From a virus (taxonomy: Duplodnaviria; Caudoviricetes): a DNA stretch of 61,644 bases. A program made the position numbers and the translations under genes. Position 1 is the stretch's first letter. The number at the start of each line of letters is the position of its first letter. Positions 353 through 61,562 of this stretch are shown in pieces. The stretch is taken from positions 1-61,644 of IMG/VR virus record IMGVR_UViG_3300032069_000399; one strand, written 5' to 3'. The notes under the pieces were generated by a model. That model did no database searches. It saw only the letters and a program-made list of their open reading frames with translations, and was not told the origin of the DNA.

Positions 353-1966
353 TTAGAACCGTTCCAATTTCTCTAGAAATCTCTTCGGCTCGAGATCAAG
401 AACAAATATGGGGTAGACTCGAGTTTCTCCTGATGGCTGGCATACCTTCTCTTCAGCCACCTGCCGGAAACCGAAGTATTGGCACAATCTGATCCCAATG
501 TCTGTCACCGGTGAAGCCGAGACGCTTCTTGCCTTCTGTTGGAGTATCCCCCCCACTTCCCTGATCAGATTTCTTCCCACCCGCGATGACGACTTTGTGG
601 GTACGCTCGCAATGACCTCTACATGGTAGAACGGCGTAGCTCCACTTTTGAGAACATCTTCTTTTGAAAACGCAGTAAGTGCACTGCACTTCCCAGCACA
701 TATTTCATCAAAAAGCCGCTCCGTAATCGGCACAACACAGGCATAGGCCATAACCCAGTTCTTTGCATCTCGCACAACATAAAACATATTTGGATTATGT
801 TCATACCAATCGCGGATGCTTGCCACAGACAATATATGACCATACCCAGGAAAGTCGCTCCATTCGATCTGAAGAATGCTCGATAGTTCTTCCTTCCTAG
901 CCACATCGAATGAAAGTTGGCCGTGAATCTCCGCATCTAATCTCTGATATTCGAGGAAAAGGTAATCGAGGCCGTGGTCCTTTTCAATTTCGCAACTTAG
1001 GGGACATCCACCACCACATTGGTTCAGGTTCTCACAAGTCTGGCACCGACCTGGTAGGTACTTTCTAGCCCGGAACGATGCAAGGACAGGTGACGAATTC
1101 CATATCTCCAGAAGTGGGGTCTCCAGAATGTTTCCAAGTCGGCAACGCGGATCGGCTCCGCATCTAGACAAATCACCCTTGTCATTAACAGCAGCTTTAG
1201 TGAATCCCCATGCGCATGGTGTCATGTATTTACGTAACCGGGCCGGAAGAATACACAATGGGAATGGATCTTCAACCGAGATTCGTATGCCGAGTTCGTG
1301 GTCAATTCGTTCAATCTCTATCAATGCGCGCTCTGCATGTTCCCGTCCGATAGTGAACGCCGAGGTCGTCTGGGCATCACCGAAAGGAATGATACGCTGC
1401 ACAATAATATAATCTAAGGGGATACCATGCGTTTCTTTAACCGATTGCGCAATACGAAATATACTACCTGCTGAACCAGGCGTGACATTAACAGCTATTC
1501 CAGTCCGACGCCCGGCCGCAGCTACTTTACGGAGCTGCGAAATCACGAAATCAAAAGCGCCACTCTTGTTGCAGAATGCATCATGTTCTTTCGCTGTCGG
1601 CGCGTGGATCGTGGTTTCGAAAGACGATATGTATCGAATAGCCTCGTCGAAGCTAGCTCCCGGATAACGATGTGTATTTGAGAGTACAGATACAGCCAAT
1701 CCCCTATCGCAGCAGTAATGAGCAAGATCAACCGCTTGAGGGTATATTCCAGGATCTCCTCCTAAAAAGGTAACCTCTCGTACGCCAGCAAAGGCTAACG
1801 CGTCAACGATGCGTTTAAGACGATCAAGAGGTGGGTGTTGCGGGCTTACTTCCCTGACCCTGGCCATGTAGCAGAATGGACATCTGTGCGCGCACGCCGC
1901 CGTAATGTGCAGCGCAACAAGATCCACTTTGTGTTGTTGCTTTCGTTTAACTTGAGCATGACTCAT
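353..1966 (-). CDS. Radical SAM/SPASM protein with C-terminal GNAT-like domain
   Basis: CAHRCPFC (CxxxCxxC), GGDP, SPASM CQTCENLNQCGGGCP; C-terminal region has GNAT-like GRNLI and LCQYFGF segments. Confidence 0.85.
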   Translation of the reverse strand: MSHAQVKRKQQHKVDLVALHITAACAHRCPFCYMARVREVSPQHPPLDRLKRIVDALAFAGVREVTFLGGDPGIYPQAVDLAHYCCDRGLAVSVLSNTHRYPGASFDEAIRYISSFETTIHAPTAKEHDAFCNKSGAFDFVISQLRKVAAAGRRTGIAVNVTPGSAGSIFRIAQSVKETHGIPLDYIIVQRIIPFGDAQTTSAFTIGREHAERALIEIERIDHELGIRISVEDPFPLCILPARLRKYMTPCAWGFTKAAVNDKGDLSRCGADPRCRLGNILETPLLEIWNSSPVLASFRARKYLPGRCQTCENLNQCGGGCPLSCEIEKDHGLDYLFLEYQRLDAEIHGQLSFDVARKEELSSILQIEWSDFPGYGHILSVASIRDWYEHNPNMFYVVRDAKNWVMAYACVVPITERLFDEICAGKCSALTAFSKEDVLKSGATPFYHVEVIASVPTKSSSRVGRNLIREVGGILQQKARSVSASPVTDIGIRLCQYFGFRQVAEEKVCQPSGETRVYPIFVLDLEPKRFLEKLERF

Positions 1967-7090: not shown

Positions 7091-7522
7091 TTGTCCGAAC
7101 AATTCGAAGGCAAGATCCTCAATCCGTATGGCATCGAGATTGACGTGCCGTTCTGGGTCTTCAAACGGCTCAAGAAATTGCACCTCCTCGAACGCGACCG
7201 CGAAACCGGCATGAGGCGCATCCACGAGCGTATCTTCGGACTCATGGACCTTTGGAGCGGACCCGACTTCAGAATCGATCGCGGCTTGAGGGCCTTCGAT
7301 CCAGGCTACCAGCGTGCCTGTCCGAAGGACGGAGGATATGCGAGCGCCTTTTTGAAAGCGTTGGGGCGCGACTGTTCCGGTCTCGTGAACCCAGCGGTCG
7401 AACGCACCCGCGATTTCGAATCGGATCTCGGGCATTCGCGCCTTTCCGAAGAATACCGTCGCTCCGCTGTGGAAGAAGCGCTGCGAGCAGTTCGAGCGAA
7501 GAGAAAGGCGAGACAAGCGTGA
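7091..7522 (+). CDS. Hypothetical protein
   Basis: GGAG RBS before TTG; GTGA overlap with the next ORF. Confidence 0.5.
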   Translation: MSEQFEGKILNPYGIEIDVPFWVFKRLKKLHLLERDRETGMRRIHERIFGLMDLWSGPDFRIDRGLRAFDPGYQRACPKDGGYASAFLKALGRDCSGLVNPAVERTRDFESDLGHSRLSEEYRRSAVEEALRAVRAKRKARQA

Positions 7523-7671
7523 CTATCGACTGGGGCGTGGTCTATATGCAGGAGCGGAAACGCCCGGCGTACGTAATCAACAACGGTAGATCGATCGCGA
7601 AGGTCCACGGCTCAGACTCGCAGCGGCGCGATGCGACGCCTCCCCGGCGCGAGAAGAAAAAGGCTGCGTGA
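7519..7671 (+). CDS. Small hypothetical protein
   Basis: GTGA overlaps on both sides. Confidence 0.45.
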   Translation: MTIDWGVVYMQERKRPAYVINNGRSIAKVHGSDSQRRDATPPRREKKKAA

Positions 7672-8033
7672 GCCCTGTCGCTCCAAAGCATCCTTGCAGT
7701 TATCCAGGCTGCCCGGTTCTTGTTGATCCGTCTTCAAGCAGGTGTGACCGGCACCAGGCTCGCGAACGCAAGGAACAGGAGAGTCGCCGCGGATCCGCAA
7801 ACTCCAGGGGCTATGGTTCCAAATGGCGCGCGGCAAGGAAACGCTTTCTTGAATTGAATCCTCTGTGCTGCGAGTGCAATCGCTTGGGACGGCTGGCTGC
7901 GGCGACTGTCGTTGACCACATCGTCCCGCACAAGGGCGATGCCAACCTTTTCTGGAGCCAGTCGAATTGGCAGGCGCTCTGCAGACGCTGCCACAACCGC
8001 AAGACCGCCGTGAGCGACGGCAGGTGGGGATAG
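7668..8033 (+). CDS. HNH endonuclease (HK97 gp74-like, packaging associated)
   Basis: CCECNR...VDHIVPHKG...NWQALCRRCHNRKT. Confidence 0.92.
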   Translation: MSPVAPKHPCSYPGCPVLVDPSSSRCDRHQARERKEQESRRGSANSRGYGSKWRAARKRFLELNPLCCECNRLGRLAAATVVDHIVPHKGDANLFWSQSNWQALCRRCHNRKTAVSDGRWG

Positions 8034-8324
8034 ATGCGAGTGCTATGCGCCGTTCTCGAAAAACTCCTGCGCTGCCAACGCAGGATTCTCAGCAACCAAA
8101 TTTTAATTCTGGAAAGGATAGAAGACATGTCACAGGTGCTTGACCAGGTGAAGGATTTCGCGGCGAAGATCGATGAGGCAACCAATGCCATCGCCGCCAG
8201 GATTCAGATGCTCATCGACAAGATCAATGCCGGAACGGCCACTCCCGAGGAGATCGCGGCCGTCCTGCAGCCCGAGGTGGACCGGCTGACCGAACTGGGG
8301 AAGGATCCATCCAATCCTGTGTAG
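8034..8324 (+). CDS. Small coiled-coil phage protein
   Basis: Abuts the HNH gene; heptad-like pattern. Confidence 0.55.
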   Translation: MRVLCAVLEKLLRCQRRILSNQILILERIEDMSQVLDQVKDFAAKIDEATNAIAARIQMLIDKINAGTATPEEIAAVLQPEVDRLTELGKDPSNPV

Positions 8325-8425
8325 CCACCGGGGTATGGGGGCCCAAATCTCTGGGCCCTCATGCCGTAGACCGGGCGCGCAGGGATTTTTTTATGCCGTC
8401 AAAATTGATCGGGGGGGGTAGCCGC

Positions 8426-8986
8426 ATGACGCAAAGACCCAGGAAAAAGAACTCGCCAGGGGTTGACGTGGGTCAAACGAGAGACGTTCCTGCGAGCCTC
8501 CAGATCGAATACAGGGCCCTGGAATCACTGATTACATACGAAAGGAATCCCCGGACCCATTCAGAGGAGCAAATCGCCCAGATCGCGGCCAGTATCAAAG
8601 AGTTCGGGTTTACCAATCCGGTCCTTCTGGACGGCGAAAACGGCATCATCGCTGGGCACGGCCGGCTTGCTGCGGCGCGTCTACTCGGACTGAAGACAAT
8701 TCCCTGCATCGAACTCGGCCACCTGACGCCGGAACAGAAGCGCAGCTACCTCATCGCCGACAACAAAATCGCCCAGAATGGGCTCTGGAACGAGGAGTTT
8801 TTGCGTCTGGAACTGACGGAATTGAAGGATTTGGGCGCGAATCTGGAGCTTTTGGGCTTCAATCCGATGGAAATCGCCGACATCACGCTCGGGAAGGACG
8901 TCAAGTTCAAGGAGTACGACGAATCCGCCGCCGATGATGTCGAGATGCTGACCTGCCCATCGTGCGGACACACCTTTCCAAAATAG
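8426..8986 (+). CDS. ParB/Srx N-terminal domain protein with C-terminal CPxCG
   Basis: NPRTHS..QI..IAASIKEFGF, IIAGHGRL, ADNK; typical partner of phage methylases. Confidence 0.88.
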   Translation: MTQRPRKKNSPGVDVGQTRDVPASLQIEYRALESLITYERNPRTHSEEQIAQIAASIKEFGFTNPVLLDGENGIIAGHGRLAAARLLGLKTIPCIELGHLTPEQKRSYLIADNKIAQNGLWNEEFLRLELTELKDLGANLELLGFNPMEIADITLGKDVKFKEYDESAADDVEMLTCPSCGHTFPK

Positions 8987-9576
8987 AGGACTACCCGGCG
9001 TTCCTGGAGGCCTGCTGGCAGGAGCATCTGAAACCACGGGAGCCCGACGCGCCGACGGTGATCTCGATCTTTGCCGGCTGCGGTGGCTCTTCGCTCGGTT
9101 ACAGCATGGCCGGCTACCGTGAGCTGCTCGCGGTGGAGTGGGACGACCATGCGGTGGAGACCTTTAAGCTTAATTTTCCGGGTGTTCCGGTTTGGCATGG
9201 CGACGTCGCCAAGCTTTCAGTCGAGGAATGCCTCAAGATCACCGGCTTAAAGTCGGGAGAGTTGGATGTTCTGGACGGTTCGCCGCCCTGCCAGGGCTTC
9301 TCGACCGCCGGAAAACGCAAGATGGACGACGGCAGGAACCAGCTCTTCCGCGAATACGTCCGCCTGCTGCAAGGCCTCAAGCCGAAAGTGTTCGTCATGG
9401 AGAACGTGAGCGGTATGGTTAAGGGCAAGATGAAGGTGATTTTTGCCGAGATCATGCGCGAACTGAAGAGATCCGGATATCAGGTTTCGGCCAGGCTGAT
9501 GAATGCGATGTACTTCGGCGTACCGCAGTCCCGCCAGCGAATGATTTTCATCGGCCTGAGGAACGATCTTTGCTGA
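8962..9576 (+). CDS. C5-cytosine DNA methyltransferase, N-terminal catalytic half (motifs I-VIII)
   Basis: FAGCGG (I), VEWD (II), GSPPCQGFS (IV), ENV (VI), QSRQR (VIII); stops immediately after motif VIII. Confidence 0.9.
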   Translation: MRTHLSKIEDYPAFLEACWQEHLKPREPDAPTVISIFAGCGGSSLGYSMAGYRELLAVEWDDHAVETFKLNFPGVPVWHGDVAKLSVEECLKITGLKSGELDVLDGSPPCQGFSTAGKRKMDDGRNQLFREYVRLLQGLKPKVFVMENVSGMVKGKMKVIFAEIMRELKRSGYQVSARLMNAMYFGVPQSRQRMIFIGLRNDLC

Positions 9577-10043
9577 TTCCCGCCCATCCTGCCGCCCAGA
9601 CTGTCCCCATTCCGGCAGGTGAATCGCTCGCCGGCTGCTCCACGCCTCCGGAGCAGCTGGCGGCGCTATTCGAGGCGGCGAGAAAGTACCGCTCGTTCAA
9701 GTACTGGGACAAGGTGCGGATCGGATCGTCTGAGAGTCGCATCACCGGCCAGGGGTTCAACGCCGTGAAGTTCGATCCGAGGAAACCGGCGCGAACGATC
9801 CGCCGCAATGACGGCAACCTCGGCATGCATGGGGCGATGCACTGGGAAACCAGGAGACGGTTTTCCCTCCCGGAGTTCAAGCGCTTCGGGTCTTTTCCTG
9901 AAGAGTTTGCCTTCGCTGGAACATTTGAGGAAGGGATCCGGCAGATCGGCAACAGCGTGCCGCCCCTTTTCATGCGGGCCATCGCCCGGCATATACGGGA
10001 TCAGGTTCTGGTGTCGATATCTGATTCGGATCAGGTGGCATGA
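9570..10043 (+). CDS. C5 MTase C-terminal module 1 (TRD + motifs IX/X)
   Basis: PARTI, RRFSLPEFKRFGSFPEEF, QIGNSVPP; -1 frame relative to the catalytic half, TTG start uncertain. Confidence 0.82.
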   Translation: MLIPAHPAAQTVPIPAGESLAGCSTPPEQLAALFEAARKYRSFKYWDKVRIGSSESRITGQGFNAVKFDPRKPARTIRRNDGNLGMHGAMHWETRRRFSLPEFKRFGSFPEEFAFAGTFEEGIRQIGNSVPPLFMRAIARHIRDQVLVSISDSDQVA

Positions 10044-10480
10044 ACCTTCATCCCCAACCGATGACGATGCCCGTTACGGTGCGCCAGGCCATCGGTCACC
10101 GGATTCGACCTGAACACGAGGGTAGCAGCGGGCGACGGCAGCAACTCGTCGATGCCTGGCGCAAGTGCCCGCCCGGAAAGTCGCTGCGAAAGACGGTCCC
10201 GAATGTTTCTTCTTTCGAGTCTGTGAGGCTTGATCCGGACAGGCCGAGCACCACTCAGACGGCGCATTTCAACTGGCACTATGCAGCCCCACGCTATCTG
10301 ATACTGGAAGAAATGGCGCTGATTGGCAGCTTCGATCCGAACTTTCGCTGGCCGGTAAAGCAAGGGCACTGTAAAAAGCAGATCGGCAACAGCGTGCCGC
10401 CGCTATTTATGCGGGCGATTGCACGACACATCAGAGAAAGCGTCCTCGCATCGATTCCAAAGACGGGAAAAGCGGCATGA
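10040..10480 (+). CDS. C5 MTase C-terminal module 2 (TRD + motifs IX/X)
   Basis: ATGA-coupled start MNLHP; PSTT, RYLILEEMALIGSFD, QIGNSVPP. Confidence 0.85.
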   Translation: MNLHPQPMTMPVTVRQAIGHRIRPEHEGSSGRRQQLVDAWRKCPPGKSLRKTVPNVSSFESVRLDPDRPSTTQTAHFNWHYAAPRYLILEEMALIGSFDPNFRWPVKQGHCKKQIGNSVPPLFMRAIARHIRESVLASIPKTGKAA

Positions 10481-11025
10481 ATCTGCACCCCAGTCCGCTT
10501 TATCAACCGATCCCAGTGAAAGCCGTAATCCCGCGATCACTCGGAACGAGGTCGCAGCGGATCAATCCATGGATTCCGGCCGATCAGCCGGCCGCCACCA
10601 TCTGCAAGACCGAAGCCGGCTATGAGCTGAAGGAAGCCCAGATCAAGCCTACCTGGCAGATGTCACGCGTTTTAGCCGGTCAGGAGAGGAAGAAGCACTT
10701 TGGTCTGGTCCGGTTAGATCCGGAGAAGCCCTCGCCGACGATCCTCAGCGGTACCGGCGGCACGACAACTGGGCTCATTCACCCATGGGACACCCGGCGG
10801 TTGACCATTGCCGAGATAAAAGCGCTTGCTTCTTATCCGGAAGAGTTTCAGTTCGTGGGGAGTTATCGAGAGAGGTGGGCACGGGTGGGAAACAGCGTGC
10901 CACCTTTGTTCATGAAGGCAATTGCTGAGCGCATCAAGTACCAACTCTTTGTAAAGAATCCCTCAGAGCACGCGCCTTCAAGCCTTTCGGAAGTGCAGTT
11001 CACGCAACGCCATCGTGTGCATTAG
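10477..11025 (+). CDS. C5 MTase C-terminal module 3 (TRD + motifs IX/X)
   Basis: ATGA-coupled start MNLHP; PAATI and PSPTI, RRLTIAEIKALASYPEEF, RVGNSVPP. Confidence 0.85.
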   Translation: MNLHPSPLYQPIPVKAVIPRSLGTRSQRINPWIPADQPAATICKTEAGYELKEAQIKPTWQMSRVLAGQERKKHFGLVRLDPEKPSPTILSGTGGTTTGLIHPWDTRRLTIAEIKALASYPEEFQFVGSYRERWARVGNSVPPLFMKAIAERIKYQLFVKNPSEHAPSSLSEVQFTQRHRVH

Positions 11026-11799
11026 ACTCTCTTCAGAGCCGAAGAGGGAGTATCCGTTCAGGTTGTAGCCGTCAAGGAGTCTCAGAACTTTCAGTCGTTC
11101 AGTCGCAGGAATCGTGCATTTCCACAGAATGTCTTGATCAGGTTCATCTCGAAGGAAAGCTGATTCATGCGGTGCGTAATGCCAAGGAGAAGTCACAGAA
11201 TCCCGTGCAACGCAGCATGTGTATTGACTTTGTTGAAGAAAGTGCCTGCGATGTGTCCGAATGTAAGGACCCAGACTGACAATTTCTGGTTCACCGACGC
11301 AGCCTCCTTTGATGCCTTCGGAGGATTCCCAATAAACATAAATAGATACCCTATCGCTGTTTTTTGATGCGTAGGCGAACGCAAAATAAGCCGCGACATA
11401 CGGCGAACGCGTCCAATCGAGAAGCGGTGACGGAAATCCATGGTGCCTGAGATATGCAAGGTAGTCATATGCCGGCACTTGGAAGAACGGTGGAGGATCA
11501 GACTGACCAAGCCAGTTTTCGAAATCAAGCGGCGAAGGCACATCCCAGCGATTTGCAGTAAAACTCTCGATTTGTGATCTGACCCTACAGATCAACCGAT
11601 GGTACTGGGTCATGGTACATTTAATTTCCCCTTCACGTTCCAGGGTAGTTTCAAGAGGCCACTGATAGTTGCTGTGTCCGCGGTAAAGAAACTCTGGACT
11701 TCCTCGCCCGGTCGAGGTCTTTCGGTCCATACGCTCTTGGATTAGAACCTGAACTTGTCTCTCAAATTCTTCCCAGGTGTCGACGTCGATCGTTTTCAT
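10978..11799 (-). CDS. FRG domain protein
   Basis: FLYRGH, RHHGFPSPLLDWTRSPYVAAYFA, QQS motifs. Confidence 0.9.
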   Translation of the reverse strand: MKTIDVDTWEEFERQVQVLIQERMDRKTSTGRGSPEFLYRGHSNYQWPLETTLEREGEIKCTMTQYHRLICRVRSQIESFTANRWDVPSPLDFENWLGQSDPPPFFQVPAYDYLAYLRHHGFPSPLLDWTRSPYVAAYFAFAYASKNSDRVSIYVYWESSEGIKGGCVGEPEIVSLGPYIRTHRRHFLQQSQYTCCVARDSVTSPWHYAPHESAFLRDEPDQDILWKCTIPATERLKVLRLLDGYNLNGYSLFGSEESLMHTMALRELHFRKA

Positions 11800-12004
11800 T
11801 GAGGGGTCTCCCAGTAGCACTAGAAATTGTCGTCCAGCCTAATCCTCGAAATTCCTATGGATGCTGCACACGTTCAAGTCAGACGTGCCGATTCTACAGT
11901 AAGACAGGAAGGGACAGTTGAGAATGGTTGTTGAGGAGGGAGACACACGATTCCCATGGAACCATGTGTCTCACGGATCGGGAGGAGACAAGGAGAGAGG
12001 TTTC

Positions 12005-12475
12005 TTAGGCGAGGGTGTTGTCGGTGAGGATTCCGGCGTCGGCGAAACTGGAGTACTCGCTTTCTCCGAGAATAATGTGGTCGAGCACGCGGATTCCGAG
12101 GATCTTCGCGGCCGATGTCAGCCGTTTGGTGCACTCGCGATCTTCCATAGATGGCGCCGGGTCACCCGAGGGGTGATTGTGCAGAAAAATGGCCGCCGCC
12201 GCGCTGTCGAGCAAAGCAGCCTTGAGGCATTCTCGCGGATGAACGACCGAGGTGGAGAGGCTACCGATGCTGATCGTGTGGTATCCGATCGTTCTGTTCT
12301 TGGAGTCAAGCGTGATCATCACGAAATATTCCCTGTCGAGGGCGGCGAACTCCTCGCGGAAGCTTTCGAAAAGTTCACGGGAGTTCTGAAATCTCGGGTA
12401 GCTCGTGAAAGTCGCCTCCGATTCCTTCACCAGCATGACCCTGTATCTGGGGAGCAGGTTCTCGAATTTCTTCAT
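12005..12475 (-). CDS. JAB/RadC-like (MPN) domain protein
   Basis: RE...VHPRE...HNHPSGDPAPSMED...LDHIILG. Confidence 0.92.
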   Translation of the reverse strand: MKKFENLLPRYRVMLVKESEATFTSYPRFQNSRELFESFREEFAALDREYFVMITLDSKNRTIGYHTISIGSLSTSVVHPRECLKAALLDSAAAAIFLHNHPSGDPAPSMEDRECTKRLTSAAKILGIRVLDHIILGESEYSSFADAGILTDNTLA

Positions 12476-12532
12476 GCGTGAATTCTCCGTTGGTTCTGCG
12501 ACTTCGGAAGCCCCTTCCGATACGGTGTCCGT

Positions 12533-12850
12533 TCATTCTGAGGCTTTGGTCTGTTTCCTTCCGATGGCGGGAATCGCAATGGGCGCGCCCGTCAATGATC
12601 CCTTGCGCGCCTGCGATCGATACCAGGCCGCGTGCCGTTCGTCAAAGGCGGACTTCGGAAATTCCGCTTTGACGGCGGCGATCATTTCGGCATTGGTGGC
12701 GGCATTGTTCGCGGTGATCGTCTCGATGATCACCTGCTTGATGGTGCGTTTTGATTCTGATTCCGGCTTCGTTGTTGCGGCCGGAGTGGCCGCCGGCTTT
12801 TTGCCATTCTTGTGCTGCTTCGTCATCTTCTGTTCTTTTTTGCTTTTCAT
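12533..12850 (-). CDS. Small basic hypothetical protein (possible wHTH)
   Basis: GGAG RBS before MKSKKEQ; lysine-rich N terminus, TNAEMIAAVKAEFP...AWYRSQ. Confidence 0.55.
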   Translation of the reverse strand: MKSKKEQKMTKQHKNGKKPAATPAATTKPESESKRTIKQVIIETITANNAATNAEMIAAVKAEFPKSAFDERHAAWYRSQARKGSLTGAPIAIPAIGRKQTKASE

Positions 12851-22265: not shown

Positions 22266-25200
22266 ATGCCCACCATCGGCAGGCTTTTTTATGAGATCGG
22301 CGGCGACACCGACCGGCTCCAGGCCGATCTGCGCCAGGCCGTTGAAATGGCCAAGAACGCAGGCCTCGACGTCAAGCGCGCCGGGCAGTCCTTCCTCGCT
22401 TCCTTCAACGAAGCCCTCAACCCCACGGGCATCCTGACCGAGAAGCTCAAGCTTCTGGAGGCCGCCGGCAAATCGAGCGGCGACATCATCGCGGTCATGG
22501 GCGGCCAGATCAAATCAGCTGCTGAGACCGCGAAAGCACACAGCCAGGCGATCGATCCGCTTGTTCAGAAATACGCTGACCTCGCGAATGCGGCCAAGGG
22601 CGGCGGCTTCTCCCTGGAAAGCCTCGGCAAGACTCTCACCAGCTTCGTCCAGAGTCCGGTGTCGGCCGCGAAGGAAGGGATCGCGGGCTTTGCCGAAAAG
22701 CTCGGCCCCGCGGCAGTCGGTCTCATGGGGATTGCATCGGCTGCCGTTGCGGCGGGTGTTGCCATTTTCAAGGTTGCCGAAAGCACCGCGGAGGAAGCGG
22801 AGCAGATCATGAACCTTTCCTTGCGCACCGGCATCGGTGTCGAGCGCGTCCAGAGCCTGCAGAAAGCTGCCGAGCTCATGGGGGCGAGCGGCGAAACGGT
22901 CGTTTCGGCGGTCTCAAAGATCAACCGGGAGCTTGGGAAGTTCGGTACCGGCGGCGAGTTCACCAAAGGGATCACCTCTCTCGGCATCTCCCTGGAAGAC
23001 GCCTCGGGCAAGTCCAAGACCGCGATCGACCTCCTCGGAGAGCTCCGCACGAAGCTCCTCGCCATCGAGGATCCCGCGGAACGCGCCCAGGTCGCTGCCG
23101 CCGTCCTCGGCAGGCGCAACCAGGAACTCGCGCCGCTACTCTTGAACTCGCAGGAAAACCTCTTCGAGCTGGCAAAGCAGCTCGAGGAAACCGGCGCGGT
23201 CATGGACAAGGTTGCGATCGACCAGGCCATGAAGCTCGACCAGAAGCTGGATGTCCTCGCCGCGCGCTTCGCCACGGTCAAGACCGTCGCGAAGGAGGCG
23301 GCAGTCGAGACTGCTCTCGCGGTAAGCGACATCTTCACCGGGGATTTCTGGAAGCTCCTGGCAGCGAACCTGGCCAAGGGCGCCGGGATGCAGAGCGCGC
23401 AGCTTGCATCGCTTCAGATGAGGATCAAAGAGACGGTGGACGCAGCGGCCGAAGCGGCCAAGAAGCAGGAGGATGCCGGTAAGAAATCGGCAGACGCGGC
23501 AGGCCTCGCCCGCATGAAGGAGGAGGAACTCTACAACGAGCGGCTGAAGCTTCTATCCCAGGGCAAGGAGAACGTCGATCTCCTCCTGAAACTGCAGGAC
23601 GCGCAGGAAAAGTTTAATACGGCGATCGAGAAGGGACTGAGCCACAAGGAAAGAGAGAAGGCGCTTAACGCGGTGCTTACGATCCGGGAGGAGATCAAGG
23701 CACGGGAGGAAGCGACCAAGGGCCTCTCGGAATGGATCGAGAAGATCCGGGGACTGAAACCGCTTGATGCATCGAGCCTTGCGCCTTCGGACATGCTCAA
23801 AAAGCAGATCGAACAGGCAAAGACACAAATCGACTCGCTCAGAGAGGCCTTTGCTGCCCCCGGGGGAAAATCCCGGGAGGAACTTGAGTGGCTGCAGGCC
23901 CAGGTCACGGCCAATGAAGAGAAAGTGTCGCAACTGACCGAGCAAAAGGCGCTCCTGGAGCACATCGCCGGCCAGGTCACGGCGATCACGCTTGCTGACG
24001 ACAAGGACTTGGCGGCGCTCGGGAACACCGTCGCCGCGCGCGAGAAGATCCTCCACCAGGTGACCGAAGCCGAGAAAGCCCTCAAGTCCATAAACCAGGA
24101 CATGGAACAGACGGCAAAGATCCAGGCCAACATCGACCGGATCGGCCACGCCGCGCTCGTCCCCAACCAGAAGGATATCGAAGCCGGCCTGAAGAAGGCT
24201 GACGCGGACATCCTGAAGCGCCTCCGGGAGTATGCCGCGGTCGAGGACGCGATCGACAAAGCCGCCACCACCTCGAAGCTCGAACAGCTGCGCCTGCAGG
24301 AACAGATCGTCGGGACCGTGATCCCGATGAACAAGGATCAGCGCGAGCAGATCGAGATTGAGAAGATCCACCTGCAGTTCGCGATAAAAGCGGAAGAGAC
24401 CCGGGTGCGGTTCACGCAGATCCGAGCCGAGCTGATGGACAAGATCAACAAGCTCGATCCCTCGGACCCACTGCGGAGCAAGGCGCTCGACGACATGTCG
24501 AAGCTGGCGGCAGCCGAGAACGAGCAGCTGGCCATCCTGCAGAAGCTCGAAGGCGCTGAGGTCTTGAAGGAACACAAGAAGGACATCATCGAAGCCGCCC
24601 AGGAGATCCGTAACCAGGTCAGCACGGTCGTGAACGACTTCGGCAAGAAGGTGGCCGATTCGATCGTCCACTGGAAGAGCCTTGGCAGCGCCGTGAAGGA
24701 TTTCTTCACGAGCCTGGCGGAATCGACGCTGCGGATCGTCATGGAAAGGCTCTTCAAGCCGCTGCAGTCGTCCATCGAAAAGGTCATCGACTCCCTGTTC
24801 GAAAAGCTCTTCAACCCGGGTGCCAAAAAGGCATCCGGATCGAATCCGGTCCCAGAGGCCGGTTCCTGGGGGAACCTCCTGGGGACGGCCGGGAGCGGCT
24901 TGCCGGACTGGCTCAAGGCTGCCACCACCCCAGCTGAAGCGGGGCCGAGCATCTCGGGGATCCTCGCGGCGGGAAATCCACTCCTTCAGGTGTATTCGCC
25001 TGCGGAGTATCCCTCGGCACAGTCATCGCCGGATTTCGTCGGCCCGACGCTCGACATGGTGAAGGGCGGAAGCACGGGCGGCATATTCGGCGTAGGAGGG
25101 ACTGCTGGCTCCCTGATCCAGGGCGGACTCATGGCCGGCGGCACGGCGGCGTTCCTCGATTCGTTCAGCCAGAAAGGGGTTCGGGGCTGGGCCGAGGCCA

Positions 25201-27008
25201 TCGGAGGAGGAGCTGCGATCGGCGCAGCGATCGGGTCGGTAGTCCCGGTCATCGGGGCGGCAATCGGTGCCGCCGCGGGGGCTCTTGCCAAAGGAATCCA
25301 GGCTCTGGTCGGCGCGATCAAAGGCAAGAACGCCTACCAGGCTGGTGCGATGGAACTCGGCCGGGACTTCGGCGGCATCAGCATGTCCCCGGACGACTTC
25401 AAGAAGTGGCTCGAGGGGGTGGGGATATCTGAGAACCAAGCCTACCCGATCCGGAAGGATATCGAGTCGAGTTCGAAATTCCTGGCCGAGGTGGCCGGCC
25501 CCCTGGCCGCGGCGCAGGGCAAGACCCAGGAATTCCTGAAGTCTCTCGAAGCGGTCAAGACGGCCTGGGGAACGTTCGATTTCCGGAAGCAGTACGAGTT
25601 GGGCGAACTGACCGGCGATTGGACGGCTCTCGACGAGGCGTTCAAGGCTGCTTTCAAGGACTCGCAGGCGTTGAACCAGAATGTCCCGGACTGGCAAACG
25701 AAGCTCACGATGCTCGGGGACCAGACTAAGAAGACCGCCGCAGAGTTCCAGAACCTCTACAAGCAGTTCGAAGAAAATAAGACAGTCTCGGACGAGTTCG
25801 CGGATTTCCTGAAAAAGAACGCGGATGCGCTCGACGAAGCGGCGAAATCATCCTCGGCTTTCGCGGATGAGCTCGCGGCTGCCAGGAAAGCCCTAGAGAT
25901 CAAACCCCTGCTCGACGGCCTGAAAAGCCTCCGGGATGGGATCTCCGGAATGATCCCCGCGGTTGAGACGATGTACGACCGGTTTCTCAAGACCGGTGAC
26001 ATCACGGACGCCTTTGCCGCGAAGATTACGGAACTCGGCGGGGACATCTCGAAGTTCACCGAGGTGTCGGGGCTCGTGAAGCTCGACAGCTACTTCGCGG
26101 AGATGGTCCAGCACTTTAGGGACACGGGCGAGATCCTCCCTGACCTTCGCGACCTCTTCCAGCAGTTTGGCGGCGATTTGTCGGCACTGGACAAAGCCGC
26201 GGATCTCCCGGGCCTAAAGTCTTCACTGGGTTTCATTCAGGATCTTTCGGACGAGCTCACCAAGTTCCTGCCGGAACAGACCGCCATCCAGAAGCTGATG
26301 GCAGGAACCATGGACCAGTCCGTCATCGACGCACTCACGGGCGCAGGAATCGCTCCCGAAAGCCTGACGAAAATCACCGGCCTTCTGAAGATGGAGACCG
26401 GCTGGGACGACGCGGTGAAGCAGTTCCAGCAGTCGGGGAAGCTGCTCCAGGGCGGGCTGCTCGAGCAGGCTCTTCAACAGTATGGCGGAAGCGCCGGCCA
26501 AACCGCCGTATCCCGATCCGGCCAGGGTTTCAACACCGTCACCGACCAGCTGCTCGCCGGGACCAAGGCCGCGATGGATGCCGCGTTCCGGACCGAGCGC
26601 ACCGGCATCCTCGACATCCTGAAGCAGGCTGCGGGAGACATCACCAAGCAGGTTGGCGACATCACGAAGCCGATCGAGGACCAGTTCACCGTCGTGAGCG
26701 AAAACATCCAGACGGCGTTTCAGGCGGCAGCCGCCGCTGCCATCGCCGAACTCGACAAGATCCTGGCCAAGATCGAAGAGATCAAGAACGCGGCCAAGGA
26801 CATAGTGCCTGAACCCGTGACGCCTGGCGCAGGCGACACTTTGCCCGTGGAACCGGGGCCGGCTGAGCCTGTCCCCCCGGCCGAAGCTTCGCAGGGCACT
26901 TATATCGACCTGCGCGGCGCCACGATTTTCGGGTACGACGAGTTTGCCCGGCGCGTAGCCGAGGCTCAAGCAATGAACGCCCGCCGCGCCGGGCTCGCGC
27001 CGGCGTAG
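22266..27008 (+). CDS. Tail tape measure protein
   Basis: 1580 aa, Ala-rich helical protein with Gly-rich hydrophobic segments, after the chaperones. Confidence 0.92.
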   Translation: MPTIGRLFYEIGGDTDRLQADLRQAVEMAKNAGLDVKRAGQSFLASFNEALNPTGILTEKLKLLEAAGKSSGDIIAVMGGQIKSAAETAKAHSQAIDPLVQKYADLANAAKGGGFSLESLGKTLTSFVQSPVSAAKEGIAGFAEKLGPAAVGLMGIASAAVAAGVAIFKVAESTAEEAEQIMNLSLRTGIGVERVQSLQKAAELMGASGETVVSAVSKINRELGKFGTGGEFTKGITSLGISLEDASGKSKTAIDLLGELRTKLLAIEDPAERAQVAAAVLGRRNQELAPLLLNSQENLFELAKQLEETGAVMDKVAIDQAMKLDQKLDVLAARFATVKTVAKEAAVETALAVSDIFTGDFWKLLAANLAKGAGMQSAQLASLQMRIKETVDAAAEAAKKQEDAGKKSADAAGLARMKEEELYNERLKLLSQGKENVDLLLKLQDAQEKFNTAIEKGLSHKEREKALNAVLTIREEIKAREEATKGLSEWIEKIRGLKPLDASSLAPSDMLKKQIEQAKTQIDSLREAFAAPGGKSREELEWLQAQVTANEEKVSQLTEQKALLEHIAGQVTAITLADDKDLAALGNTVAAREKILHQVTEAEKALKSINQDMEQTAKIQANIDRIGHAALVPNQKDIEAGLKKADADILKRLREYAAVEDAIDKAATTSKLEQLRLQEQIVGTVIPMNKDQREQIEIEKIHLQFAIKAEETRVRFTQIRAELMDKINKLDPSDPLRSKALDDMSKLAAAENEQLAILQKLEGAEVLKEHKKDIIEAAQEIRNQVSTVVNDFGKKVADSIVHWKSLGSAVKDFFTSLAESTLRIVMERLFKPLQSSIEKVIDSLFEKLFNPGAKKASGSNPVPEAGSWGNLLGTAGSGLPDWLKAATTPAEAGPSISGILAAGNPLLQVYSPAEYPSAQSSPDFVGPTLDMVKGGSTGGIFGVGGTAGSLIQGGLMAGGTAAFLDSFSQKGVRGWAEAIGGGAAIGAAIGSVVPVIGAAIGAAAGALAKGIQALVGAIKGKNAYQAGAMELGRDFGGISMSPDDFKKWLEGVGISENQAYPIRKDIESSSKFLAEVAGPLAAAQGKTQEFLKSLEAVKTAWGTFDFRKQYELGELTGDWTALDEAFKAAFKDSQALNQNVPDWQTKLTMLGDQTKKTAAEFQNLYKQFEENKTVSDEFADFLKKNADALDEAAKSSSAFADELAAARKALEIKPLLDGLKSLRDGISGMIPAVETMYDRFLKTGDITDAFAAKITELGGDISKFTEVSGLVKLDSYFAEMVQHFRDTGEILPDLRDLFQQFGGDLSALDKAADLPGLKSSLGFIQDLSDELTKFLPEQTAIQKLMAGTMDQSVIDALTGAGIAPESLTKITGLLKMETGWDDAVKQFQQSGKLLQGGLLEQALQQYGGSAGQTAVSRSGQGFNTVTDQLLAGTKAAMDAAFRTERTGILDILKQAAGDITKQVGDITKPIEDQFTVVSENIQTAFQAAAAAAIAELDKILAKIEEIKNAAKDIVPEPVTPGAGDTLPVEPGPAEPVPPAEASQGTYIDLRGATIFGYDEFARRVAEAQAMNARRAGLAPA

Positions 27009-27072
27009 CTCATCGGCAGAGCAGTCGCTCTGTAAGCGACGGATTCCGGTTCGAATCCGGACGCCGGCTCCA
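26999..27072 (+). tRNA. Phage tRNA-Thr(TGT)-like gene with atypical C33
   Basis: Acceptor gccggcg/cgccggc plus TCCA, D stem gctc/gagc, anticodon stem gtcgc/gcgac with loop TC-TGT-AA, T arm tccgg-TTCGAAT-ccgga. Confidence 0.75.
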
Positions 27073-43806: not shown

Positions 43807-46800
43807 TTACTCACCTTCCTGTGAAACGGGTGTGGCCTCAGCCGCAGCACGCCAGCCGTCGTCGAACATAAAGTGGTTTGCCTTCAGGGCAGGGTTCTGA
43901 ATGCGGTGTAACTGGAAAGAGTCACTCTCTGCTCGTTCGACGGCGTAGAGCCAGAACGAGTCGCCGAGATCCAACGCCTTGTCAAACTGCGGACGGGATA
44001 AGACGGCATATGTGTCGCTCCACTTTCCGGAGAACGACTTCACCTCAATATAGCGCACTACCTTTCCGGTGCCGTCGCAGGATTCCACATCGTACCCCGG
44101 ATTCTTGTGCGGCATCTCCGTTGGTGTGCGGCCCGCCGCGCGTTCGAAGTCCAGGACTCGCAGAATCCCGGCTTGGTCTACGGCGGACCGGCCGTCCTGC
44201 TGCGCGTCTGAATTGGGGGTTGCCTCAAATGGCCGAACTTCCGGTGCTGGGACGTAGCTCCTGAGCACAGGTCGACCCTTCTTCCTGCCCACTTTGCGTG
44301 ACGCGCCATCGCGGAGCCGATCGCTAGTGCTGGAGGGTTCGGTGTCCGGAGAGGAGATCGGTGGCGTCGGTGGTGGTGTGTTGCCGCCGAGAAGCCGCTT
44401 GATGGCTTCCTCGGGAGTGAGCGTCACAGCTCCCTCAGTCTCATCTACTGGCGCTGTGGCCGGAGGGATTTCCGTTCCGACCGGCGTCCCGGTGCCCAAC
44501 GTATCAACGGCCTCGTCCGTGGAAGTCGGTTCCGCTACGGACGTGTCCAACCTTGCAAAACCGAGCTCGTCCAATGTGGCTGCAGCTTCGTCCACAGATT
44601 CCGCGGCAAGCGCCTCCTTGAAGCCAGCCGCAAATCGTCCGGGGTCTTCCTCCGGGAACAATGCTGTGGCCAGCTCGCGCGCGATCGCTGCCCACGAAAG
44701 CGCGCCGTTGCCCTTGGTAAACAACAATGTTTCTCGCTCGGCTTGGTAGATGGCAGGAACAGGTTCTGAGGCACTTTGCAGTTCCCGATTGAAGGCCTGT
44801 AGTCGATACCTGATGGCGATCGCCGCGGCCGCCTGGCACTGAATGGCCTCCAGGCGCCTCAGAATCGCGGCCGTGTCATTTCCCAGGCTGTAGGCTTCCA
44901 GCACACGACCGATCTGATTGGTGCGGGCCCGGAGTCGTTCGCTCATCGCCGGATCGTCGACTGGGTCGACGCACTCCAGCAACTCAACCTGCACGGCGGT
45001 TCCGAGTGCTCGTACTCCCGCCTCGTCCAAGGCGCGGCCAGTGCCGATCGGTCGTTGGATTACATTGTTCGTGAGGAACGCGCCAAACTTCGCTGCGAGG
45101 CCTGCCCTGTTCTCAAAGAACATCCACTCGGGCAGATTGAGCACATGGCTGTCCGCGGGAACGCACTTCATTGACCGTAGTTCCCTTATCGGCTCCGTTG
45201 GTGCCGTGCCCTCTTCGAGAGCCCGGCCGATGACTCGCCAACACGCCATGAGTACAGCGTACGCTTCATCGTCCAGGGGACTATTCTGCGACCCGAAGTC
45301 CCCCGCTATCTCTCGTAGGACGCTAAGGCAATCTTCCCAGGACGGCGTCTCGCGTACGCCGAGTTGCTCAAGAAACCGTCCGTAACTGCGAAGATCCTCC
45401 CCGAGCCGCCGTCGGTAACGGCCGAAGGGGTGCTCGCCCCAGAACACCTCCTTCGCCGAGCGATAGGCCTCTCCAAGCCACAGGCACTTCTGACCCTTCA
45501 ACTGATTGAGCGCTGCCTCTCCTACTTTGTCGTTCAGGTAACGGTAGACCTCAGTATTCACAGGGATCTGCCTGGCTGCGTGATGAAGTAGGTGCTTAAC
45601 CACAAGGTTGGCTGTCGGCGTGAGATGGACACCGAGGAACTCCAGAAGGGGTCGGCTCGCGTTCTGAACGGTCGCCGGGAGATCCACGAACACGGCCTGA
45701 CTCTCGAAAAGGTAGGCCTGATATGTGGCGTGCAGCTCGCTCGGAGAATACCAGCGATCGGTCTGCCCACGTGCCGGAAGCCACCGGCTGCTCCGCAATG
45801 GCGTAAGCTCCGGAACGTCATCGCCGTTTTCCACACGAGTCCCAAGATGCGCCACGATCTTCTGGACCTGTTGAGCAAATGTCGGGGAGTACGTTTTAGA
45901 AGAGATGCCCTGTACAGTTGTGACGACATCTTCAAGTCGCGGCTTGCTCGCAACACCCAACCATTCGTAAAGGTCTCGGACCGCGACTTCGTGCCCTTCG
46001 GGCAGCGCCGCAAGCTTGGCGACACTGCCCAGACAATCTCGCACGGCGCTGTTATCGAAGTGGCACTCCTGAGCCTTTCGAAAGATCCCATCCGCGCATT
46101 CCACCAACGCCGTTTCCGCGAGTGCGATACGGGCTGCTTTGCTGTCCTTCAGCTCGCCAAGGTGACTGGCTAGGAGCAACGCCGCCGCCCGGCGCTTGGT
46201 CTCCGGGATTTCCTCTCGTTTAAGTGCTTCAGGCAGGCGAGAAGTCGCATACGTGAGGAAGTCCAACTCAGGCATTCCAAGGTCTTTCAGAAACTCCCGG
46301 CGCCCGCCAAGAGCGTCGACATCAACGAGTTCTGCCAGTCCGAGTGGATCGCTGAAGTTCCCCGGAAGCGCCATCTTGCCAAGTGGGCGGAGGCTGCCTG
46401 CAGTCGGGAAAAGCGGCAGAGCTCCCAGTCTGGTTTTCAATCGGGGATCCGAGAGGATCTCCTGACGTCGGTTCTCCAACCACTCGAACAGATGCTGCAA
46501 AGGCAACTCACCTTGTTGCCAGACTCGGCCAGGCTCTTGAGCTCCTCTGCCCAGGGCCGCCACGGCTGCGGCGGCATTGAAAGGTTGGCATAGGTGAGCG
46601 AGCGGCGAGAACGAGGGTTCGCTCGCTACAAAGGGAATACCCAAATCCAGGGGCTCGAACAGGACTACCGTCGCATCGTCCGCCGCGTAAACGTCTCCGC
46701 ACGGCCAGAAGGCACCGTCCCGCCCGGGGGCCAAAGCAACTTCACGCACTCGATGTTCGTCCTCCGCCTTCGCTTTTGGGGTGCGTTGCTGCCGTTGTAG

Positions 46801-61470: not shown

Positions 61471-61562
<92 letters not shown>

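Follow-up and report, generated by a model that had tools for sequence, protein, structure and literature searches.

What does a phage encode when the catalytic half of a C5 DNA methyltransferase is followed by three consecutive genes, each of which resembles the half that is missing? This question is raised by the IMG/VR record IMGVR_UViG_3300032069_000399, a virus of the Caudoviricetes, whose 61,644 nucleotides (nt) were analysed as one stretch, referred to below as the window. An original prediction, made from the sequence alone, had placed a split methyltransferase at positions 8962 to 11025, with one catalytic subunit (alpha) and three alternative specificity subunits (beta1, beta2 and beta3). 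Based on the comparison with related loci, on estimates of selection and on structure prediction, we consider it probable that the cluster encodes a multi-subunit C5 DNA methyltransferase, in which one pool of alpha gives rise to two or three heterodimers of different specificity with a role in anti-restriction. The features concerned are listed here, with protein lengths in amino acids (aa) and matches to the methyltransferase family PF00145 in brackets.

8962..9576, + strand: alpha, 204 aa, GTG start, C5 DNA methyltransferase motifs I-VIII (PF00145 positions 2-165 of 324, E 5e-52)
9558..9563, + strand: GAGGAA, a Shine-Dalgarno-like hexamer in the 3' end of alpha, 6 nt before the TTG of beta1 (read from the sequence)
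9570..10043, + strand: beta1 (type T0), 157 aa, TTG start, in the -1 frame (PF00145 positions 234-322; GNSVPP at 9948-9965)
10040..10480, + strand: beta2 (type T3), 146 aa, ATGA-coupled (PF00145 positions 236-323; GNSVPP at 10385-10402)
10477..11025, + strand: beta3 (type T1), 182 aa, ATGA-coupled, with the largest target recognition domain (PF00145 positions 230-323; GNSVPP at 10888-10905)

The first open reading frame (ORF) carries motifs I to VIII and then stops, as had been predicted, and all of the named motifs were located: FAGCGG at 9070-9087, PPCQGFS at 9283-9303, ENV at 9400-9408 and QSRQR at 9526-9540. The C5 DNA methyltransferase motifs I (FxGxGG), IV (PCQ, with the catalytic cysteine), VI (ENV) and VIII (QxRxR) are thus all four found on alpha, and the protein ends 11 residues past QSRQR at a TGA stop codon (9574-9576). 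No other alpha-type match occurs anywhere in the 61.6-kb record. Among GenBank phages, its best protein match (59.9%) belongs to Aphanizomenon phage CL131 and is annotated as a C-5 cytosine-specific DNA methyltransferase.

The three ORFs behind alpha were confirmed, from the sequence and by PF00145 (E values of 4e-11, 1.5e-9 and 2.4e-9 in order), as modules with a common HP..P linker, a differing variable region and motifs IX-X. Each beta consists of a docking peptide, a target recognition domain (TRD) and motifs IX-X, so that a TRD followed by GNxVPP is present three times. The N-terminal HP..P segment reads LLIPAHPAAQ in beta1, MNLHPQP in beta2 and MNLHPSP in beta3, and is the HP.P segment that comes after motif VIII in fused relatives. 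At the C-terminus, all betas share GNSVPPLFM.AIA..I; motif X forms the most conserved stretch of every beta, and its helix is almost invariant. The overall identity between the three proteins amounts to 33-36%, and their TRD segments cannot be aligned save for a short F..VrLDP.kP..T core. The record holds one alpha and three unrelated TRDs. The two P..TI strings that had been noticed in the third module are present as PAATI and PSPTI, and the reported ATGA coupling of the second and third modules corresponds to overlaps at 10040-10043 (beta2 start) and 10477-10480 (beta3 start); the TTG of beta1 at 9570 overlaps the alpha stop codon.

The split between alpha and beta1 is neither an assembly error nor the result of decay. 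Logan contigs of run X1, which is probably the source sample and was assembled with a different assembler, span positions 9570, 10040 and 10477 with 0 differences and 0 gaps. In a database of 5.8 billion proteins, alpha homologues at 83-93% identity have a length of about 204-213 aa, and full-length forms (315-357 aa) are confined to identities of about 83% or less. In order to place the window among its relatives, 208 related loci, taken from collections of viral sequences, metagenomes and genomes, were sorted with an alpha query and a beta profile; as some contigs are present in more than one collection (L013 and L151, for instance, are one contig of 31,623 bp), loci are called distinct after removal of identical alpha sequences. 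Of 198 loci with a near-complete alpha, 122 encode a fused protein with the alpha part before the beta part (A-B), 58 are split, nine show the order B-A-B, three show B-A followed by a stop, and six are cut by a contig end. Nearly all of the split alphas (57/58) fall into one clade of 60 sequences without fused members (FastTree support 0.95, midpoint root), and the sole split alpha outside this clade (L210) is an unrelated sequence with 37% identity. The split loci number 51 when counted as distinct and belong to Acidobacteriota phages and prophages. Because 57/58 split alphas form one clade that comprises 51 distinct loci at a synonymous divergence (dS) of about 1, the split, judged from this tree, arose once and persisted. 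Nor can the pattern be due to chance, as this split comes back, with its gene order, in 51 distinct related loci. The concern that homologues of alpha might be single full-length enzymes is met by the same data, as the nearest homologues are themselves split.

Across these loci the split point is conserved, as the original prediction had proposed to check, although the local junction sequence, the start codon of beta1 and the tail of alpha vary, the alpha stop codon falling 1 to about 8 codons further on depending on the locus. Among distinct sequences, T0 genes start with TTG (15), GTG (11) or ATG (5), T1 genes with ATG (11), TTG (4) or GTG (4), and T3 genes with ATG (4) or TTG (1). Within the last 21 nt of alpha, 5 nt or more of AGGAGG are matched in 19/46 distinct split sequences versus 7/95 fused ones, a comparison that ignores relatedness. 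In the window, alpha and beta1 lie in different frames, and they would be fused by a single T added to the TTT run at 9569-9571. Programmed -1 frameshifting was considered as a source of a single chain and rejected on inspection of the junctions across loci, where no slippery heptamer is conserved at the alpha-beta1 boundary.

Individual junctions show further variation. In L170 (4190-4300), a 1-nt shift in the 3' end of alpha puts alpha and beta1 into a single frame, with about 10 residues following QSRQ replaced; this is either a re-fusion that occurred naturally or an error in the assembly of the metagenome-assembled genome (MAG) concerned. In L097 (3299-3404), as well as in L099, L101 and L169, a duplicated piece of the 3' end of alpha (QSRELMIFIGVRED) has been kept 5' of beta1. 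In loci of this type, alpha and beta1 are separated by an insertion of about 1.1 kb of foreign DNA, and the alpha remnant still provides GGGAGGA, a Shine-Dalgarno-like sequence, ahead of a CTG at the beta1 start position.

The number and identity of the C-terminal modules vary, another point that had been put forward for examination: related loci carry one to three betas of the types T0, T3 and T1. When the modules of the split clade were grouped at 60% identity, beta1 fell into T0, beta2 into T3 and beta3 into T1, and their order is invariably alpha, T0, an optional T3 and T1. Among distinct loci with downstream sequence left, 12 show T0/T1, four show T0/T3/T1 (the window included) and four show T0 alone. 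A search of viral contigs with the beta queries re-found the alpha-bearing loci L005-L007 (beta3-type matches in 3/3 contigs, beta2-type matches, at 77%, in 2/2 contigs), and the same search, made with betas only, gave 11 other matches at 29-55%. In five Acidobacteriota MAGs searched with PF00145, beta-type matches are located within a few kb of an alpha-type match in G001:C20, G001:C18:774171-776014, G002:C7:68383-71647, G004 and G005. Besides the cluster of the window's own protein, standalone relatives of beta2 with at least 62% identity make up 16 clusters in the protein database, with lengths of 122-182 aa (most 137-147 aa).

The betas are autonomous genes, as about 15 loci have unrelated genes, 0.4-2.2 kb in total and in part on the opposite strand, between alpha and T0 or between T0 and T1. 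Among these intervening ORFs are a metallophosphoesterase-like gene and a RadC-like gene on the opposite strand, as well as a Crp-like gene, as named from their translations. In these interrupted loci the betas retain intact frames and their own starts. As intact betas are found more than 1 kb from alpha, they are not products of read-through or frameshifting. The ratio of nonsynonymous to synonymous substitution rates (dN/dS; pairwise Nei-Gojobori, distinct sequences, median) was 0.065 for alpha (563 pairs), 0.156 for T0 (346 pairs from 38 distinct orthologues), 0.139 for T1 (83 pairs from 19 distinct orthologues) and 0.198 for T3 (8 pairs from five distinct orthologues in loci), all of these values being rough because dS lies at about 1-1.5, near saturation. 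The TRD represents the most constrained segment (dN/dS 0.07-0.11 in T0 and 0.10-0.12 in T1), and the T1 TRD is strongly conserved across orthologues. By this measure, alpha and all betas are under purifying selection. The second and third modules, with dN/dS of 0.14 for T1 and 0.20 for T3, are thus conserved and maintained rather than neutrally evolving, in agreement with the expectation drawn from their coupled starts.

Modelling of alpha together with a beta, also suggested at the outset, was carried out for beta3, using alignments of 45 rows for alpha and 19 rows for beta3, in three runs with three controls. The interaction prediction score from aligned errors (ipSAE) reached 0.91 in 3/3 runs, against 0.00 for the best control, with a contact agreement of at least 94% and a predicted local distance difference test (pLDDT) score of the partners of at least 66. 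The mark set for ipSAE is met by 58/80 solved complexes and by 2/110 mismatched pairs, a calibration that is roughly valid here, since own alignments were used. In the model, residues 139-151 of beta3 (motif X helix) pack on residues 39-52 of alpha (motif I loop), and residues 1-17 and 116-128 of beta3 on residues 182-204 of alpha. Alpha and beta3 are accordingly predicted to assemble in the canonical C5 methyltransferase fold.

Where do three different TRDs behind one alpha come from? For each beta type, the nearest sequence is not a neighbour from its own locus but the C-terminal half of a fused methylase, a different one for each type. The closest fused relatives of T3 belong to a class designated T2, at 49-53% (L133 53%, L083 49%); T1 is closest to L197 (57%), followed by L055 and L041 (50-54%), and T0 to L082 (41%). 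The T2 class also serves as the N-terminal module of the B-A-B proteins L013 and L151. Together, these relationships point to the capture of modules from other phage methylases and not to duplication in place. With modules derived from different fused methylases, distinct targets are the natural expectation, and the three TRDs likely confer different specificities, as far as sequence comparison can tell. When each beta was used to search PDB sequences, matches were confined to the conserved IX-X region and no target sequence could be inferred; the best match was 8yf3_A (E 5e-11, 2e-3 and 3e-12), the others being DNMT1. In GenBank phage records, too, matches were limited to the conserved IX-X part, and the beta3 TRD had none.

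Additional modules are also found in single-chain relatives. The nine B-A-B methylases contain two complete modules (e.g. L013:4563-6038, L033:4503-5933, L140:3578-4987 and L171:754-2184; further examples are L058, L072 and L151), both of which open with the same (W)FPKAE/HPKAE docking segment. An AlphaFold model of L013 (mean pLDDT 83.5, predicted template modelling score 0.71) says nothing on which of the two modules docks. Other layouts comprise B-A followed by a separate B (L057, L046), A-B followed by a separate B (L153) and the order B-A (L053). A beta-profile search covered 1.84 billion cluster representatives; the best 150 of them were classified as 56 B only (many from short contigs), 28 aB, 24 AB, 14 BAB plus five close variants, and two ABB. 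One protein of 813 aa (P0214) has a single alpha flanked by five TRD/IX modules (BBAbBB), two of them N-terminal and three C-terminal, with motif X in three of the five. P0235 shows the order A-B-B, and P0225 and P0229 are further proteins of this kind. Since the same module class is found free, N-terminal and C-terminal, phages appear to trade modules, and the split operon of the window looks like one expression of a broader multi-module habit of this phage methylase family. Whether this amounts to a general design, with one C5 core and interchangeable TRD-IX-X modules that occur as subunits (one to three betas) or as N-terminal, C-terminal or two-sided fusions (up to five modules per core, in P0214), is in our view evenly balanced.

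We propose the following mechanism. Alpha, translated first, would form a pool that supplies the S-adenosylmethionine pocket and the catalytic cysteine, and would be blind to DNA sequence when alone. Each beta would be a separately translated specificity subunit, translationally coupled and often equipped with a weaker start codon. The N-terminal docking peptide of a beta (M-x-L-H-P-x-P...) and its motif X helix would clamp onto alpha and thereby complete the canonical fold, and the TRD together with motif IX would read the target sequence. Given unrelated TRDs on the same docking elements, one alpha pool would yield three heterodimeric enzymes that co-exist and methylate three different sequences, and phage DNA, possibly also lysogen DNA, would be shielded from several restriction systems. 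We infer the catalytic activity of each pair, their different specificities and the anti-restriction role. The idea of one alpha serving three betas was supported by each of the comparative tests, and none of the refuting outcomes named at the start that computation can address came about, whereas the swapping of subunits, by which it had first been explained, is not required, as three heterodimers are the simpler arrangement.

Several observations weigh against this proposal. The extra betas are dispensable, because the four distinct loci with T0 only have 209-2693 nt of downstream room. Some modules are decayed (T3 in L086 is internally deleted and the 3' end of T0 in L007 is frameshifted), partial module pieces occur in L131, L135, L166 and L169, and about eight T0 genes have CTG alone, with no ATG, GTG or TTG, at the expected start. 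The dN/dS values carry the roughness stated above, and conclusions about T3 rest on few sequences, five of them distinct in loci. The complex prediction covers beta3, with beta1 and beta2 sharing its docking peptide and motif X, and the high score may reflect likeness, since monomeric C5 methyltransferase structures have been solved, and does not count as independent evidence. Differing TRDs, moreover, do not prove differing target sequences. Finally, a few beta-only PF00145 matches lie far from any alpha in the MAGs (G001:C18:938493-938705, G002:C7:42975-43133 and 45506-45613, G003:C10:631239-631448). Such alpha-distant matches may stem from orphan betas, from remnants or from sections of other prophages.

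The decayed and partial modules, the T0-only loci with room and the occurrence of T3 in a minority of loci would also fit a situation in which only alpha and beta1 are active and beta2 and beta3 are captured 3' halves that decay or contribute little. We regard this as unlikely, as T1 joins T0 in most of the roomy loci (12 T0/T1 and four T0/T3/T1), T1 and T3 have kept their start codons and, with dS at about 1, reach dN/dS values of 0.14 for T1 (0.10-0.12 for its TRD) and 0.20 for T3, and beta3 is the very module predicted to bind alpha. The direct repeats at motif X in all three betas, together with a module order and content that vary by locus, might instead suggest stored 3' cassettes that are recombined one at a time behind alpha, in the style of an hsdS shufflon. 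These repeats, however, are merely 71-80% identical over 49-114 nt, and because they are direct, recombination between them would delete modules and not switch them. Notable inverted repeats are absent and the cluster encodes no recombinase, every beta begins at the module boundary with a start codon of its own and ATGA coupling, and the Logan contigs show a single arrangement without joints, which makes such a cassette system very improbable.

A comparably low probability is assigned to betas acting without alpha, as sequence-specific DNA-binding regulators or occluders of restriction sites. The few beta-only matches far from alpha in Acidobacteriota MAGs and the 56 B-only proteins among the best 150 representatives, many from short contigs, would agree with such a function, but motif X, the most conserved part of the betas, packs on the motif I loop of alpha in the model and would serve no purpose if a catalytic domain were missing; in every split locus that was examined, alpha precedes the betas. 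Least credible of all is an artefact or a dead gene, i.e. a methylase broken by a frameshift with junk duplications, or a single alpha-beta1 chain made by -1 frameshifting. The one extra T at 9569-9571 that would fuse alpha and beta1, and the 1-nt shift behind the fusion in L170, speak for it; the independent assembly, the 51 distinct loci with differing junctions, the lack of a conserved slippery heptamer, the position of T0 more than 1 kb from alpha in several loci and the purifying selection speak against it.

Multispecific methyltransferases of Bacillus phages have one set of motifs IX-X. The enzymes of Bacillus temperate phages are described with multiple TRDs arrayed in one polypeptide (PMC12707154). 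Enzymes of the SPR, phi3T and rho11s type resemble the window's system in being phage-encoded and in combining one core with several TRDs, which there protect against many restriction systems; they differ in that their TRDs are placed in tandem in one chain, between motifs VIII and IX, whereas here every TRD sits on a separate polypeptide, together with a docking peptide and a set of motifs IX-X. Among the otherwise monomeric C5 methyltransferases, M.AquI and M.EcoHK31I are presented as exceptions in PMC3404938. According to it, M.AquI consists of two polypeptides from adjacent genes, both of which one enzyme requires, with the break inside the variable region, and the small polypeptide of M.EcoHK31I carries only motif IX, with the TRD and motif X on the large one (PMC3404938). 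The examples given in the original prediction, two-polypeptide M.AquI and one-chain multispecificity in Bacillus phages, agree with what PMC3404938 and PMC12707154 report.

Like M.AquI, the cluster of the window has motifs I-VIII and IX-X on separate products of adjacent genes, an arrangement kept here in 51 distinct loci. In M.AquI, the break falls within the variable region so that both subunits contribute to it; here, it falls directly after motif VIII, and therefore the whole TRD travels with beta. M.AquI has one beta, the window has three, and most related loci have two or three. M.EcoHK31I shares the need for two polypeptides and differs by having motif IX alone detached. The breakpoint position is the same as in the natural, circularly permuted type H enzymes M.BssHII, M.Alw26I, M2.Eco31I, M.Esp3I and M2.BsaI, which are single chains with one TRD-IX-X module, in contrast to the separate chains downstream of alpha; the type H topology is matched by the B-A relative L053, and the B-A-B relatives carry a permuted and a canonical module. 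Detached N- and C-terminal halves of BspRI, BsuRI, HhaI and SssI complement each other in vivo, and for breaks in the proximal variable region of M.SssI no overlap is needed (PMC3404938). There, motifs I-VIII and TRD-IX-X halves of BspRI/BsuRI, HhaI and SssI assemble into an active enzyme in Escherichia coli, split as in the window; those are laboratory constructs with one C-terminal half each, and the present halves are natural, conserved and several in number.

Some genomes hold several alternative HsdS specificity genes for a shared Type I catalytic subunit. The separate specificity subunit for a shared catalytic subunit offers an analogy only, as HsdS differs in fold and chemistry (N6-adenine) and there is no family relationship. 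A literature search found no paper that describes one alpha with several betas, supplements and REBASE being outside its reach, which accords with the earlier statement that no such system had been described, within that same scope. Because two features of M.AquI and one of the Bacillus phage enzymes are lacking here, the system is set apart from both types. The combination of a break before the TRD, a specificity wholly on beta and several betas per alpha is not described in the literature covered by that search.

If the pairs are active with different targets, they would represent a third natural route to multispecific cytosine methylation, next to tandem TRDs in one chain and single two-polypeptide enzymes. 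The specificity of a C5 methyltransferase would then be borne entirely by a small (about 150 aa) detachable subunit, which is relevant to how phages keep up with the variety of restriction systems in their hosts. For genome and REBASE-style annotation, it would matter that betas are now called "hypothetical" or truncated methylases and that alphas resemble pseudogenes. Natural, co-evolved split halves with a common docking interface could also be of use in engineering, as off-the-shelf parts for programmable or conditional DNA methylation. Should the general design hold, it would amount to an HsdS-like specificity-subunit system for 5-methylcytosine, with which phages re-tune their anti-restriction spectrum by gaining or losing single small genes.

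The IMG/VR record, from a phage of soil or sediment, has an estimated completeness of 82% at 61,644 bp and encodes tailed-phage genes for a DnaB-like helicase, a replication initiator, an HNH endonuclease, the large terminase, a portal protein, a major head protein and a tape measure protein. Between its replication and packaging modules lie five overlapping genes on the + strand, in the order parB_N, alpha, beta1, beta2 and beta3, the first of which is:

8393..8986, + strand: ParB N-terminal-domain protein, 197 aa, with a C-terminal zinc ribbon (PF02195 E 1.3e-6; phrog_620 E 1.4e-53)

This gene overlaps the start of alpha by 25 nt, and a homologue is located directly 5' of alpha in 104/122 fused and 46/58 split loci. 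The protein also matches positions 25-183 of 633 of phrog_498, "DNA methyltransferase", and may be a functional partner of the methylase. In other phages, the ParB_N domain is joined to a methylase in one chain (phrog_498). A DNA search of GenBank phage records gave no close relative of the region, the ParB part alone being matched by three records at about 74%. A scan of positions 7500-12600 for promoters and terminators was uninformative, with one promoter-like site where 2.1 are expected and, for the + strand, no internal terminator of a convincing kind.

The closest relatives of the window's cluster are carried on Acidobacteriota MAG contigs of 0.66-1.6 Mb, which indicates that these phages are temperate and makes the host phylum probable; the host of the present phage is thus probably an Acidobacteriota bacterium.

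Downstream of the cluster, a gene for an FRG-domain protein (PF08867, E 5e-20; 10978-11820, - strand) runs convergent to beta3 and covers its final 48 nt, and beyond it a RadC-like "DNA repair protein" gene (phrog_10276) occupies 12005-12475 on the - strand. In L118 and L168, a RadC-like gene is placed between beta modules instead, which makes the region a hotspot for gene insertion. The record further contains two tRNA-Thr genes. The first (26999-27072, + strand, TGT) overlaps the end of the tape-measure ORF at 22266-27008, and the second (61487-61562, - strand, CGT) lies at the extreme end of the record, where it may mark an attachment site. An ORF of 537 aa at 353-1966 (- strand) shows weak matches to radical-SAM/Fe-S oxidoreductases (phrog_1802 and phrog_16999, E about 1e-7).

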